From: Anaerolineae bacterium
GTDB lineage: Bacteria; Chloroflexota; Anaerolineae; B4-G1; SLSP01
Length of the DNA: 64,000 nt
Direction: 5' to 3'
Assembly: GCA_034437215.1 (NCBI GenBank)
Contig: DAOTVC010000039.1
Coordinates: 35,188 to 99,187 of the forward strand
This document shows, in pieces, positions 2,259 through 9,144 of this stretch. How positions within the stretch are numbered: position 1 is the stretch's first letter; the number at the start of each line of letters is the position of its first letter. Made by a program: the position numbers and the translations under genes. The notes beneath the pieces were generated by a model that ran no database searches, was not told where the DNA came from, and saw only the letters and a program-made list of their open reading frames with translations.

Positions 2259-3749
2259 ATGCGCGAAGAGAGCTTGCAGGCAGAGCAAGCCCGCCTCCTG
2301 GGCGCGCTCCGCAGACACGATGCCGTCGTGGGCCTGGGATGGGGCCTGGTAGCGGCGTTGGCCCTCGAGACGCTGCTGGTCCTCGCCGGTCGGTTGGTGC
2401 CCCTCTGGTACCGCAGCGCTCTCCTCCGGCTCCTCCCGCTCCTTCTCGGCAGCGGGCTCCTTCTCGGTGCCCTTGTCGGGGCTTATGGCAGCCGGCCCCT
2501 CAGCCGCCGCCTTCGTCGTCTGGAGCGAAATCTCGGGCTCGCCGAGCGCCTGATTACCGCTTGGGAACTGGAGCAAGGACGGATCACCGCCCCCCCTTCC
2601 ATGGTCGAAGAACAGCGCCAGGAGACCCTGGAAACTCTGCGAGGGCTGGACGCCGGGCGCACCTTTCCTCTACGACCCGCGCCGGCTGCCCTCCGCACCG
2701 TCCTGGGGCTCGTCCTGCTGCTCGGCGTAGCGCTGGGACTCCCTAACCCTCAGGAGGAGCGCCTCCTGGAACGGCAGGCGCTTCAGGAGGCCCACGAGGA
2801 AACGATCACCGAGATAGAGTCCTTGATCGCGAGTGTGGCACAAGATTCGTTTCTCGACCCCGAAACGCGCGAGGCAGCGCTGGAGGCCCTGGAAGAGGCC
2901 CTCAGCACCCTGGAGGATCCCCAGACTTCGCCCGACGAACAGATGCGGGCCCTGGACGAGGCTGAGGAGACGCTGGCGGACCTCGAAAACGCCGCAGCGG
3001 AGGCCCGCGTCCAGCAGCTCGCGGAAGCTGCCCCCCTCTCCACGGAGGAGGCAGTCCGACAGATGAGCGAGCTCCTGCAGAGGAGAGACCCTCAAGCGGC
3101 GGCGGCCTGGTTGCGGGAGCTGGTCGAGGAGCGCGGCGATCCGCTCACACCGGAGGAGATCCTGGCCCTGGCGGATGCCTTTACCGAGATGGCGCAGGCA
3201 CTTCAAGAGACAGATCCGGCACTCGCCGACCAGTTTCAGGAGATAGCGGAAGAGATCTACTCCGGTGACGCGCAGGAAGCGCGCGCAGCCATCCTGGAGG
3301 CCTCTGAAACGCTGGGAGAGGTAGCGGAGGGTAACGCGTCCAACCGTAGCCTGGAAAGCGCGCAGGCGCGCTTACAGCGCGTCGAGGAATCCCTGGGGGC
3401 TTCCGCCGGTATGCTATCAGAGGGGGAAGTCCCCAGGGGAGCAGACGCCTCCGGCAGCGGGGGCACAGCAGGCGGGGAGGATGCGGGCAGCAGTGCGCCC
3501 TATGGCCCCTCCGAGAGCGCGCGCCTCGAGGGGGAGAGCGGGCAGATCACCTTACCCCGTGAGAGAACAGCCGGGGAAGGGGAGCCGGGCGTAGGCAGCG
3601 CAGGCAGCGCCCGGGTGGACTACACGGAGGCCTACGGCGAGTATGCGGCGGCTGCAGAGGCCGAACTCTCCAGGCGCTCCCTCCCCCCGGCGATGCGGGG
3701 CTACATCCGTGCCTACTTCAGCAGCCTCGAAGAGCAGGGCTCGCAATAA
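2259..3749 (+). CDS. Hypothetical membrane-anchored protein with about three N-terminal TM helices and a long acidic Glu/Ala/Leu-rich predicted coiled-coil C-terminal domain
   Basis: 496-aa ORF starting 4 nt after the permease stop, so likely co-transcribed. Hydrophobic N-terminus, then repeated EEALxxLE-type acidic segments. Confidence 0.5.
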   Translation: MREESLQAEQARLLGALRRHDAVVGLGWGLVAALALETLLVLAGRLVPLWYRSALLRLLPLLLGSGLLLGALVGAYGSRPLSRRLRRLERNLGLAERLITAWELEQGRITAPPSMVEEQRQETLETLRGLDAGRTFPLRPAPAALRTVLGLVLLLGVALGLPNPQEERLLERQALQEAHEETITEIESLIASVAQDSFLDPETREAALEALEEALSTLEDPQTSPDEQMRALDEAEETLADLENAAAEARVQQLAEAAPLSTEEAVRQMSELLQRRDPQAAAAWLRELVEERGDPLTPEEILALADAFTEMAQALQETDPALADQFQEIAEEIYSGDAQEARAAILEASETLGEVAEGNASNRSLESAQARLQRVEESLGASAGMLSEGEVPRGADASGSGGTAGGEDAGSSAPYGPSESARLEGESGQITLPRERTAGEGEPGVGSAGSARVDYTEAYGEYAAAAEAELSRRSLPPAMRGYIRAYFSSLEEQGSQ

Positions 3750-3793
3750 GATTACGCACCACATAGCCTTGGCCAAGGAGATTATTGCAGTTC

Positions 3794-3822
3794 TTGACAA
3801 TCGTCCCGCCCTATGCTAACAT
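3794..3822 (+). promoter_or_regulatory. Sigma70-like promoter candidate TTGACA-N17-TAACAT
   Basis: Read from the sequence: TTGACA at 3794-3799, 17-nt spacer, TAACAT at 3817-3822. Confidence 0.4.
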
Positions 3823-3944
3823 GAAACTTGTTTGGAGATCCCAGTGCAAAACTTAACCGGAGCGACCCAGACCAACAACAATCAGCAGCCGCATCCTCGG
3901 GGAGGATCCGGTTAGCCGAACGCGCGAGCAACACGCGAATTGAA

Positions 3945-3978
3945 CCAGCCTACCGGACCGGAGGCTGGTTTTTCTTTT
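3945..3978 (+). terminator. Intrinsic terminator: CCAGCCT/AGGCTGG stem followed by TTTTTCTTTT
   Basis: Hairpin plus U-tract about 150 nt downstream of the candidate promoter and about 85 nt upstream of glnA. Confidence 0.5.
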
Positions 3979-4061
3979 GGGCTAGGGGTCTGCTCCAGAA
4001 GGAGGTGCAGCCAGGTGAGAAGCAAGGCCCGCGAGGGGTCACGTTGTAAACGGTCAAAATC

Positions 4062-5450
4062 TTGACAGCCAAGCAGACTCATATACCATTCAACCAAGGT
4101 CAGGAGGCAAGCAAAATGTCCATCGACGTAGTGTCCCGTGCCCAAGAAGATCAAGTACACTTTATCAGCTTACAGTTCATCGACATTCTGGGGAACATCA
4201 AGAGCGTGACCATCCCGGTCCAGCAGCTGGAGAACGCCCTTCAAGAGGGAGTCTGGTTTGACGGCTCCTCCATTCAGGGCTTCGCGCGCATCTACGAGAG
4301 CGACCGCGTCCTCGTGCCTGACCCCGGCACCTACCGGGTACTCCCCTGGAGCGCCCCGGAGCGGCGCCGGGCGCGCATCCTCTGTGACGTACACGGCCCG
4401 GACGGGGACCCCGCCGCCAATGACCCGCGTACCGTCCTCAAGCGCGCCGTGGAGCGCGCGGCGCAGCGGGGATACGTCTACAACACCGGGCCGGAGATCG
4501 AGTTCTTTATCTTCGAGAGAGCGGCTCACTCCCCTCTCAGTCCCGTCCCCCACGACGTCGTGGGTTACTTCGATTTCTCGCCGCGGGACAAGGCCCAACA
4601 GGTACGCAGCGAGATCGTCCTGGCACTGCAGGCTCTGGGTATCGAGGTCGAGATGAGCCACCACGAGGTAGCGACGGGCCAACACGAGATCGACTTCCGC
4701 TACGCCGACGCTCTCACCAGCGCCGACAACGCCGTCACCTTCAAGTCCGCCGTAAGGGCCGTCGCCGCCAGCCACGATCTCTACGCCAGTTTCATGCCGA
4801 AGCCTATCTTCGGGATCAACGGCTCGGGCATGCACACCCACCAGAGCTTCGCGGGCCGCGATAACGGACGCAATCTCTTCTACGATGCTCACGACACCCA
4901 CCACCTCTCCTCCCTGGCGCGCTCCTTCGTGGCGGGACAGTTAGCCCACGCCCGGGCCCTCTCCGCCATCGTCGCTCCCACCGTCAACAGCTACAAGCGG
5001 CTCACGCCGGGCTACGAGGCCCCCGTCTACATCTCCTGGGCCCACCGCAACCGCTCCGCCCTCATCCGCGTGCCCTCGGCACGTCCCGGACATGAGGCGG
5101 CGATGCGCGTCGAGCTCCGCTGCCCGGATCCCAGCGCTAACCCCTATCTCGCCTTCACCGCGATGTTGGCGGCCGGGCTGGACGGTATCGAGAAGGAGCT
5201 GAAACCACCGGCGATGGTCAACGAGGACATCTACCATCTGGAGCCGGCCGACCTGGAGGCGCGCGGGATCCAGACGCTGCCCGGCACGCTGGGGGAGGCC
5301 CTGGAGGCCCTGGAGAGAGACGAGGTGCTTCTCGAGGCCCTGGGTGCGCCCATCGTGGAGGCCTTTATGCGGGCTCGCCGGGCCGAGTGGGAGGAGTATC
5401 GCATCCAGGTCACGCCGTGGGAGCTGGAACGCTATTTAGAAACGGCCTGA
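4062..5450 (+). CDS. glnA: Glutamine synthetase type I
   Basis: 462 aa. Beta-grasp motif FDGSSI and ATP-binding region KPIFGINGSGMHTHQS; length typical of GSI. Confidence 0.9.
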   Translation: MTAKQTHIPFNQGQEASKMSIDVVSRAQEDQVHFISLQFIDILGNIKSVTIPVQQLENALQEGVWFDGSSIQGFARIYESDRVLVPDPGTYRVLPWSAPERRRARILCDVHGPDGDPAANDPRTVLKRAVERAAQRGYVYNTGPEIEFFIFERAAHSPLSPVPHDVVGYFDFSPRDKAQQVRSEIVLALQALGIEVEMSHHEVATGQHEIDFRYADALTSADNAVTFKSAVRAVAASHDLYASFMPKPIFGINGSGMHTHQSFAGRDNGRNLFYDAHDTHHLSSLARSFVAGQLAHARALSAIVAPTVNSYKRLTPGYEAPVYISWAHRNRSALIRVPSARPGHEAAMRVELRCPDPSANPYLAFTAMLAAGLDGIEKELKPPAMVNEDIYHLEPADLEARGIQTLPGTLGEALEALERDEVLLEALGAPIVEAFMRARRAEWEEYRIQVTPWELERYLETA

Positions 5451-7710: not shown

Positions 7711-7800
7711 CAGGTGGAGGACGACACACCAATCTTTGCACGAAGTAGCATTATGGAATCGGAGGGTCCTTTTGCGCCCCTCCGCAGCAAGGGGAATTAT

Positions 7801-9144
7801 ATGAATGAGGCAAATTCGCACAAATTATGGCGCGCCACCTTGGGAGAGCTGGAGTTGCAGATGACGCGCGCCACCTTTGACACCTGGCTACGAGACACCC
7901 GTTGTCTGGGTTTGGAAAACGGAGAGACCCTGGTCATCGGTGTCAAGAACGGGTACGCGGTCGAGTGGCTGGAGAACCGCCTTCAACCCATCGTACAGCG
8001 CACCCTGCAGCACATTGCCGGAAAAAGTCTAGAAACACGCTTTGTGGTGTGGGAGGGTAATCGCACCCCGCCCCCGCCACCGCTTCTTCAGGGGGAGAGC
8101 ATGGATGTCGTCACCACTCCGGTTCCCGATCCAGGTCTGAATGAAGAGTATACCTTCCAGGACTACGTCGTGGGGCCGGGCAACCGGTTGGCGCAGGCGG
8201 CCTCCCAGGCCGTCGCCGAGGCACCGGCCCGCGCTTACAACCCCCTCTTCCTCTACGGCGGTGTGGGGTTGGGTAAGACCCATCTCCTCCACGCCATCGG
8301 TCAGATCTCCTACAGGCAGGGTCTGCAAGTCCTCTACATCTCCTCCGAGCAGTTTACCAACGACCTGGTCGAGGCCATCCGCACCCACACCACCGATGCC
8401 TTTCGGGATAAGTACCGCAACGCTGAAGTCCTCCTCGTCGATGACATTCAATTTATCGCCGGCAAAGAGAGCACCCAGGAGGAGTTCTTCCACACCTTCA
8501 ACGCCCTCCGCGATACCGGACACCAGATCGTTCTCAGCAGTGACCGCCCGCCCAAGGCTATGATCACCCTTGAGGAGCGCCTGCGGTCGCGCTTCGAGTG
8601 GGGCCTGATCGTCGACATCCAACCCCCGAATTTCGAGACCCGGTTGGCCATCCTGCGCAAGAAGGCCCATCGGCGCGGCGTGAAGATCTCGGACAGTGTG
8701 CTGGAGTTCATCGCCAGCAACGTCGAGAGCAACATCCGCGAGCTCGAGGGCGCTCTCAACCAGCTCCTGGCGCTCTCACGCCTCACGGGCTTGCCGCTAA
8801 ACCTGGAGACTGCTCAGCAGGCCCTCACCGACCTGCTCCCCAGCCGCCCCACCCTGACGGCCGAGGAGATCATCGAGATGGTCTCTACCTACTACAACCT
8901 CACCGTGGACGAGCTGCGGAGCCCTCGTCGCAGCCGCAGGATCGCCTTTCCCCGCCAGATTGCCATGTACCTGATCCGGGAGGAGACCGATTCCTCCCTG
9001 CCCCAAATCGGAGCGCAGCTGGGCGGCAGAGATCATACGACCATTCTCTACGGCTACGAGCGCATCCGCACCACCCTGGAAGAGGACCCCCAACTGCGAC
9101 GCGAGATCCTGACGCTCAAGTCACGCCTCTACGAACGCAACTAA
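7801..9144 (+). CDS. dnaA: Chromosomal replication initiator protein DnaA
   Basis: AAA+ Walker A GVGLGKTHLL and C-terminal DnaA-box binding domain (RRIAFPRQIAMYL). The ORF track starts at 7714, but the conserved N-terminus begins at MNEANSHKLW (ATG 7801). Confidence 0.9.
   Translation: MNEANSHKLWRATLGELELQMTRATFDTWLRDTRCLGLENGETLVIGVKNGYAVEWLENRLQPIVQRTLQHIAGKSLETRFVVWEGNRTPPPPPLLQGESMDVVTTPVPDPGLNEEYTFQDYVVGPGNRLAQAASQAVAEAPARAYNPLFLYGGVGLGKTHLLHAIGQISYRQGLQVLYISSEQFTNDLVEAIRTHTTDAFRDKYRNAEVLLVDDIQFIAGKESTQEEFFHTFNALRDTGHQIVLSSDRPPKAMITLEERLRSRFEWGLIVDIQPPNFETRLAILRKKAHRRGVKISDSVLEFIASNVESNIRELEGALNQLLALSRLTGLPLNLETAQQALTDLLPSRPTLTAEEIIEMVSTYYNLTVDELRSPRRSRRIAFPRQIAMYLIREETDSSLPQIGAQLGGRDHTTILYGYERIRTTLEEDPQLRREILTLKSRLYERN

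Follow-up and report, generated by a model that had tools for sequence, protein, structure and literature searches.

A candidate leader-peptide attenuator with glutamine and asparagine codons upstream of glnA in Anaerolineae

The subject of this analysis is the region immediately upstream of glnA in a 64,000-nucleotide (nt) stretch of DNA from an Anaerolineae bacterium of the phylum Chloroflexota (GenBank contig DAOTVC010000039.1, positions 35,188 to 99,187; hereafter the window). Here glnA encodes a type I glutamine synthetase with Pfam domains Gln-synt_N and Gln-synt_C (E 2.5e-136), whose sequence is 100% identical to P0001, named by NCBI 'MAG: type I glutamate--ammonia ligase [Anaerolineales bacterium]'. 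Ahead of the gene stands a compact unit, present in one copy only in the window, that consists of a promoter (P1), a short open reading frame (ORF) with its own Shine-Dalgarno sequence, hairpins, and an intrinsic terminator; a second promoter (P2) follows, and the glnA ATG lies about 140 nt 3' of the terminator (Table 1). For comparison, glnA loci were gathered from genomes and metagenomes and are referred to by L numbers; the closest relatives of the window, L161-L165, have GlnA proteins 92-93% identical to that of the window and were aligned as A1. Support for the function proposed below is sequence and computation throughout.

Table 1. Features of the region upstream of glnA and their positions in the window
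Feature	Position	Strand	Basis
Leader promoter P1: -35 TTGACA (3794-3799), 17-nt spacer, extended -10 TGcTAACAT (3814-3822)	3794-3822	+	Consensus scan
Shine-Dalgarno GGAGA of the leader ORF, 5 nt before its start codon	3834-3838	+	Sequence; invariant in L161 and L164
Leader peptide ORF: 23 codons plus stop, GTG at 3844 to TAG at 3913-3915, encoding MQNLTGATQTNNNQQPHPRGGSG (stop)	3844-3915	+	Sequence, alignment
Regulatory codon run AAC AAC AAT CAG CAG (Asn-Asn-Asn-Gln-Gln)	3874-3888	+	Sequence, relatives
Segment 1: 5' arm of leader hairpin (anti-antiterminator), spanning two Gln and the Pro-His-Pro codons	3882-3898	+	Minimum-free-energy pairs, masked folds
Segment 2: 3' arm of leader hairpin, with CCGG at 3908-3911 and the stop TAG at 3913-3915	3902-3919	+	Alternative pairings
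Weak spacer hairpin CGCG(CG)AGCAACACGCG	3921-3937	+	-4.0 kcal/mol, z -0.4
Segment 3: 5' arm of terminator, GAACCAGCCTACCGG	3942-3956	+	Masked folds
Segment 4: 3' arm of terminator (to 3971) and T tract TTTTTCTTTT (3969-3978)	3958-3978	+	Terminator scan, folding
Purine-rich box like an extended Shine-Dalgarno, AAGGAGGTG, between terminator and P2	3999-4007	+	Conserved in relatives
Proximal glnA promoter P2: TTGACA-N16-TACCAT	4062-4089	+	Scan score 10/12
glnA, type I glutamine synthetase, 444 aa: Shine-Dalgarno AGGAGG at 4102-4107, ATG at 4116, stop TGA at 5448-5450	4102-5450	+	Pfam

An original prediction, made from the letters of this region, had described a promoter, two hairpins, a terminator, and a second promoter just ahead of glnA, and most of this outline stands. 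The promoter TTGACA-N17-TAACAT is present at 3794-3822, scores 10/12 against the consensus, and has the TG at 3814-3815 that makes an extended -10; the consensus scan found 2 promoter-like sites per 3 kb vs 0.4 expected. Transcription from P1 is predicted to start at about 3829-3830. The hairpin ATCCTC-GGG-GAGGAT (3893-3907) was correctly seen and is the inner part of a longer leader hairpin (3882-3919; -16.6 kcal/mol, z -2.17), the terminator proved to be strong (hairpin 3942-3971 with T tract to 3978; -19.1 kcal/mol, z -5.97, 0/200 shuffles), and Pfam bears out the identity of the gene downstream. The second promoter-like sequence also exists, but its TTGACA is at 4062-4067 and not at 4043. 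The CGCG hairpin can be drawn, but it has little stability and is disrupted in L161; it is paired in 58% of the cells of an 11-sequence alignment (A2, below) and is probably not essential. What the prediction missed is that the unit is probably coding.

The leader ORF has a conserved Shine-Dalgarno sequence and start codon, the GTG of the window aligning with ATG in L161, L162, L164, and L165, and its peptide reads MQNLTGATQT-NNNQQ-PHPRGGSG. It thus carries consecutive codons for glutamine, which the product of the downstream gene makes, and the intrinsic terminator lies between this ORF and the structural gene. The 153-nt RNA from 3828 folds with -49.9 kcal/mol (z -2.15; z-scores here are relative to shuffled sequence, e.g., 200 shuffles, and duplex energies were compared with dinucleotide shuffles). 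Its four segments allow the mutually exclusive helices 1:2, 2:3, and 3:4; the regulatory codons fall at segment 1, and segment 2, which pairs with segment 1 or, alternatively, with segment 3, contains the stop codon. A ribosome with its A site on 3883-3888 hides segment 1. When such a ribosome on the Gln codons was represented by blocking all RNA up to 12 nt past the A-site Gln codon, nucleotides 3907-3916 of segment 2 paired with 3948-3957 of the terminator 5' arm (-18.7 kcal/mol); a mask at the stop codon instead hides segment 2 and leaves the terminator 5' arm free. Nucleotides 3907-3916 are common to both competing helices. The same behavior is found in 19/19 units of differing sequence: the naked RNA forms 1:2 and the terminator, a ribosome on the Gln run leads segment 2 to pair with the terminator 5' arm, and a ribosome at the stop leaves that arm free.

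Mapping the unit across the gathered loci, we found it conserved at the same place 5' of glnA in related genomes, and its conservation at an equivalent position argues that it is not a chance feature. In the closest GlnA clade, an equivalent unit occurs at the equivalent place nearly always. We assembled a leader set of 23 units from Anaerolineae contigs, a few of them near-duplicates, which share one anatomy: a TTGACA-N17-TGnTAnnAT promoter, a Shine-Dalgarno sequence and ATG, an ORF of 20-33 codons, a stop, and a terminator. The promoter motif precedes units in L081, L001, L002, L004, L006, L007, L011, L012, L017, and L030, and P1 itself is almost unchanged in the close relatives L161 and L164. 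The codon run in the 23 leaders comprises 3-9 Gln codons (QQQ to Q9), often with Asn codons before it and usually with a Pro codon directly after it, so that Gln and Asn make up 19.1% and 9.5% of leader residues, vs 4.5% and 1.8% in a background of two window proteins. While the N-terminal sequence of the leaders is poorly conserved, the run is kept and so is the stop position, and the spacing between them is 4 codons in one subtype and 8-10 codons in the other two. Terminators are found in 19/19 measured units, with -18 to -24 kcal/mol and a T tract, 18-39 nt past the stop.

The specificity of this arrangement was examined by scanning both strands of about 1.02 Mb (the window and all loci) for a small ORF in which a [QN] run of 3 or more residues includes 2 or more Q, with the stop no more than 12 codons and a strong terminator no more than 75 nt away. 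The pattern matched 36 times, and 35/36 matches lie upstream of glnA on the same strand, with 1 elsewhere. The unit is absent from Thermoflexus-type loci, where aspS is directly 5' of glnA, and from the more distant bacterial and archaeal glnA loci that we examined.

Comparison with the closest relatives shows which parts of the leader are kept. The run NNNQQ of the window corresponds, codon for codon, to QNNQQ in L164 and to NQNQQ in L161, and these swaps between Asn and Gln are two-nucleotide changes. We infer from this pattern that Asn codons may be equivalent to Gln codons in the run. The hairpin loop of L161 lacks 1 nt, and through this deletion the C-terminus becomes GPVR-stop in place of GSG-stop and the stop shifts by 6 nt, with the sequence TCCGGTT kept. 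A frameshift that leaves TCCGGTT in place indicates that the RNA and the stop position are constrained rather than the peptide. Read from these alignments, selection maintains the Gln/Asn codons, the RNA sequence of segment 2, and the site of translation stop, but not the peptide tail; this pattern is the signature of a regulatory leader peptide and not of a micropeptide with a function of its own or of an RNA that binds a ligand.

The pairings themselves were assessed on alignment A2, which holds 11 sequences of the window's leader subtype. For the naked structure, 76.5% of cells are paired vs 37-48% when the structure is slid along the alignment, and the covariation score is 0.261 vs 0.167 in shuffles (0/500 shuffles). 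For the antiterminator, 78% of cells are paired vs 16-54% when slid, and its flanking pair 3912:3952 covaries (UA 3, GC 2, AU 1, CG 1, GU 1). CCGG is invariant in the 11 sequences, including one in which a frameshift alters its reading. Duplex energies give a mean z over 18 units of -1.55 for 1:2 and -1.10 for 2:3, and they are significant only collectively, not for the window's own 2:3 helix.

Taken together, these results lead us to consider the unit a likely transcription attenuator of the ribosome-mediated (leader-peptide) type, sensing Gln-tRNA(Gln) and Asn-tRNA(Asn), the tRNAs of the amide amino acids. The RNA started at P1 would open with the 23-codon ORF and its five Asn/Gln codons in a row. 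With ample charged Gln-tRNA(Gln) and Asn-tRNA(Asn), the ribosome would reach the stop at 3913-3915 and cover segment 2, the terminator at 3942-3978 would form, and an RNA of about 150 nt would end there. When glutamine is short, the ribosome would instead stall on the Asn/Gln codons and cover segment 1, so that the freed segment 2 (CCGGUUAGC) could pair with the terminator 5' arm (GCCUACCGG) and block the terminator; RNA polymerase would then pass the proximal promoter into glnA, and more glutamine synthetase would be expressed. If the leader were not translated at all, hairpins 1:2 and 3:4 would both form and transcription would terminate. The regulatory sign of such an attenuator fits, since low glutamine would give more glutamine synthetase. 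Sequence and computation provide the ORF, its codon run, the terminator, the competing pairings, their conservation, and the link to glnA, while translation of the leader ORF, stalling of the ribosome, coupling of ribosome and polymerase, and the share of read-through relative to P2 are presumed by this scheme. The terminated RNA or the peptide might also act in trans.

Several points weigh against this interpretation. The near-consensus and conserved P2 stands between the terminator and glnA in the window, and in 14 of the 20 loci scanned a P2-like site occurs 47-55 nt from the glnA start, so read-through is not required for glnA transcription; most likely, the attenuator adds a starvation-induced component from P1 to P2-driven glnA expression. 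No P2-like site was detected in L001, L006, L013, and L093, where glnA would therefore rely on read-through. Equilibrium folding gives a terminator probability of about 0.9-1.0 at every ribosome position. Because the terminator always wins at equilibrium, the model rests on co-transcriptional kinetics, as for trp, and because this probability is uninformative, truncated, co-transcriptional folds were used instead. The core of the antiterminator, CCGG:CCGG, is invariant and hence carries no covariation information, and the window's own antiterminator is no better than shuffled sequence (z -0.5 to -1.14; 30/200 shuffles). In addition, the related units are phylogenetically non-independent. The model also assumes coupling of transcription and translation, which is not known from Chloroflexota. 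Finally, a search of 20 ORFs with Pfam and NCBIfam, covering the 64-kb window only, found housekeeping genes and no gatCAB, glnS, asnS, PII, or amtB.

Of the other readings of the unit, an independent small gene deserves the closest attention, improbable as we judge it to be. In that case an RNA of about 150 nt and/or the 23-aa peptide would act in trans as a small RNA, dual-function RNA, or micropeptide and modulate glutamine synthetase, the terminator would be constitutive, and glnA would be expressed from P2 only. A small RNA was among the options of the original prediction, the unit's own promoter and strong terminator do define a discrete transcript, and a trans-acting RNA retains some probability because the conserved promoter at 4062-4089 separates the terminator from glnA. 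Precedents exist in the trans-acting attenuator products rnTrpL/peTrpL and in sRNA154 of Methanosarcina, which is nitrogen-related and has a small ORF (PMC12612679). However, the peptide is unconserved outside the Gln/Asn run, the run varies in length from 3 to 9, and a frameshift alters the C-terminus, none of which marks a functional peptide. A stop placed exactly inside the shared segment 2, at a fixed spacing from the run, is hard to explain without cis attenuation. Thus, a small RNA acting only in trans is disfavored by the Gln/Asn codon logic, by the nearly exclusive association with glnA (35/36 matches), and by the several loci in which P2 was not detected. The other options of the original prediction fared differently: a nitrogen-responsive attenuator is supported, whereas a ligand-binding RNA is not.

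An RNA of the latter kind, or one bound by a protein, would control the terminator without translation, as a glutamine riboswitch, a T-box-like leader, or an ANTAR-type system, and we regard it as very unlikely. Hairpins followed by a terminator 5' of glnA would suit it, glutamine riboswitches occur in other phyla, and an ANTAR regulator with a terminator-bearing leader is present at glnA in the sister Anaerolineae L174, L175, and L178. The original prediction had seen no consensus of known glutamine riboswitches here and had proposed an Rfam scan, which agrees with it: cmscan of the whole window gave no hit at gathering score, and at E up to 10 the region 3700-4150 gave only two chance-level minus-strand hits (SNORD88 and traJ-II). 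There was accordingly no covariance-model match for the glutamine riboswitches (glnA RNA, glutamine-II/Downstream-peptide) and no T-box hit in that region, and since neither scan returned a relevant match, the riboswitch, T-box, and known-leader readings were dropped. ANTAR-dependent antitermination in the window was rejected as well, as the genes next to glnA include no ANTAR regulator and the hairpin loops are of 3 and 7 nt and are not paired hexaloops. Moreover, the conserved positions track codons, with Asn/Gln swaps, varying numbers of CAG copies, and a kept start and stop, and beyond the two alternative helices there is no conserved complex fold. A little less probable again is arrest of the ribosome by the nascent peptide (..QQPxP..), which would sense free glutamine or the status of elongation factor P in the exit tunnel. 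Pro follows the run in most units, P-x-P is frequent, and proline accounts for 10.1% of leader residues; but a stall induced by glutamine would have the wrong sign, because more glutamine would give more glutamine synthetase, and the sequence after the run differs by subtype (PHPRGGSG, PMPC, PIPPPGSV, SPSSQGVE). Conservation of the CCG after the run needs no arrest, since the codon lies within helix 1:2 and RNA pairing suffices. There is very little to recommend a chance ORF whose terminator merely ends or insulates the upstream gene at 2259-3749. That gene has no other terminator before 3942, but a dedicated promoter, Shine-Dalgarno sequence, start, Gln/Asn run, and stop are kept in 23 units of diverse contigs, the reverse of an ORF lost from most relatives that retain the terminator, and all but one of the pattern matches are at glnA.

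Within the attenuator interpretation, the mixture of codons may have a metabolic basis. Both GatCAB and asparagine synthetase take glutamine as their amide donor. The Asn codons would thus also report glutamine, as charging of their tRNA would depend on it. A more specific version, which we offer tentatively and hold to be rather doubtful, is that the attenuator reads the glutamine amide-donor pool via indirect aminoacylation, monitoring Gln-tRNA(Gln) and Asn-tRNA(Asn), with GatCAB amidating the two, and that it is a main regulator through which a Chloroflexota lineage adjusts glutamine synthetase to nitrogen status. Amidation of both tRNAs by GatCAB, if true, would explain the interchange of Asn and Gln codons in the run. 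This would be the first attenuator tuned to tRNA transamidation, and it would imply transcription-translation coupling in the lineage.

The units also vary in number and form among the loci. Two complete tandem units are present in each of L004, L005, L011, and L169. In L006, L013, L093, L172, and L176, a second small ORF (MRCRTSSKNENV.. or MYWRTSSKNENVR followed by a stop) lies about 20-70 nt past the single leader terminator; it has no Gln run, and GC-rich palindromic repeats lie between it and glnA. It may be a decayed second attenuator unit. In the subtype with the 4-codon spacing (L004 unit a, L005 unit a, L006, L013, and L093), the ATG comes a few nt after the -10, as TGTGCTAAGAT(A)ATG, and this proximity means that the leader mRNAs may be leaderless or nearly so. 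A different arrangement is seen in L174, L175, and L178 (positions 1-1200 of each; GlnA 76-77% identical), where genes for a GAF-domain histidine kinase and an ANTAR-domain response regulator are 5' of glnA and the 5' leader has a terminator-like hairpin, AAGCCCTTCGGG...CCCGGAGGGCTTTTGTCG. From its gene context, this looks like protein-dependent antitermination at glnA in place of a Gln-codon leader.

Between the leader terminator and glnA, two further elements are conserved. P2 is invariant in the close relatives, spacer included, and the proximal promoter with the 5' untranslated region (UTR) is unusually conserved (window 4062-4115; 14/20 loci), reading TTGACA-N16/17-TATACT or TACCAT, then TAGCCAAGGACAGGAGG. 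That the P2 spacer is also kept in close relatives hints at an additional regulator binding there. The purine-rich box at 3999-4007 is AGAGGGGGTGAGGC in L161 and L164 and AGAGGGGGTGAGGC or AAGGAGGTGATG among relatives; boxes resembling it are found in L001, L002, L008, L010, L012, L170, and L081, and in L161 the position is about 1350-1375. The box might serve ribosome loading or stand-by on the read-through transcript, or it might bind a protein. A start-stop mini-ORF follows the box in relatives, ATG TAA in L161 and L164 and ATG TGA in L081; the window lacks the mini-ORF ATG because of a deletion, and small ORFs 3' of the box are not conserved in the window. The read-through 5' UTR (3972-4135) has no significant structure (z -0.53), and pairing of the U tract with the glnA Shine-Dalgarno sequence is unsupported.

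The neighbors of glnA in the window, by Pfam, are genes for an ABC-2 permease, a 496-aa protein of unassigned function, a NUDIX protein, and endonuclease III (EndoIII), and the order 496-aa protein, leader, glnA, NUDIX, EndoIII is syntenic in relatives. About 2.3 kb 3' of glnA, beyond the NUDIX and endonuclease III genes, lies dnaA (7714-9144, +), and its nearness suggests that the locus may be close to a replication origin. The only tRNA called by ARAGORN, a 91-nt tRNA-Gly(ccc) at 4347-4437 (-) within the glnA coding region, is implausible and almost certainly spurious.

Nitrogen assimilation begins with glutamine synthetase, whose known controls include protein regulation (NtrC, GlnR/TnrA, NtcA, PII, adenylylation), small RNAs, and the cyanobacterial glutamine riboswitch. 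If the proposed attenuator is real, transcription of glutamine synthetase would be set by the supply of amide-amino-acid tRNAs to the ribosome, a different control logic. Attenuation would be extended to an amino acid for which we found no described example and to a poorly studied, mostly uncultured phylum, as well as to units that combine two types of regulatory codon, can stand in tandem, and have an internal promoter. A conserved intergenic element of Anaerolineae genomes also gains an annotation, and the unit is a compact candidate part responsive to glutamine.

In its layout, the unit resembles the trpL, hisL, pheL, leuL, thrL, and ilvL attenuators of Escherichia coli and Salmonella: a short leader ORF bearing consecutive codons for the controlled amino acid; four segments with exclusive 1:2, 2:3, and 3:4 helices; a stop in segment 2; a terminator before the biosynthetic gene; and, as proposed here, starvation leading to stalling and stalling to read-through. 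Unlike them, it uses Gln and Asn codons interchangeably, targets glnA, belongs to Chloroflexota (Anaerolineae), has a separate conserved promoter before the gene, occurs as tandem attenuators in some genomes, and has no Rfam leader family. Similar too are recently described attenuator candidates with an upstream ORF (uORF), namely a uORF with Cys codons ahead of cysS in Rhodobacterales (uORFC-8-2) and one with Ile/Leu/Val codons at ilvB of Corynebacterium (PMC8632094, PMC11109978). These too are comparative-genomics finds with a conserved start and stop, tandem codons in the first stem, and a terminator stem, but the amino acids, genes, and phyla differ, and there is no homology to the glnA leader unit in sequence or structure.

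Among systems tied to glutamine or nitrogen, the cyanobacterial and marine glutamine riboswitches (glnA RNA and glutamine-II) share with the unit cis RNA-level sensing of glutamine for glutamine synthetase control; in contrast to these riboswitches, which bind free glutamine and need no translation, the unit would be read through codons and matches neither model. The ANTAR-type system of L174, L175, and L178 would likewise control glnA at a terminator in the 5' leader, but it would be protein-dependent, with no leader ORF and no Gln/Asn run. As with rnTrpL/peTrpL, the small RNA and peptide released by the trp attenuator (PMC12612679), the terminated leader would be a separate RNA (about 110-150 nt) that bears a small ORF and could also act in trans. 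In open-access text, where absence is not proof, we found no report of a Gln- or Asn-codon leader or of leader-peptide attenuation at glnA. The logic of the proposed attenuator is already known from trp, his, leu, thr, phe, and ilv, and what would be new here is its amino-acid specificity, its target gene and phylum, its mixed Asn/Gln regulatory codons, its tandem units, and its internal promoter.

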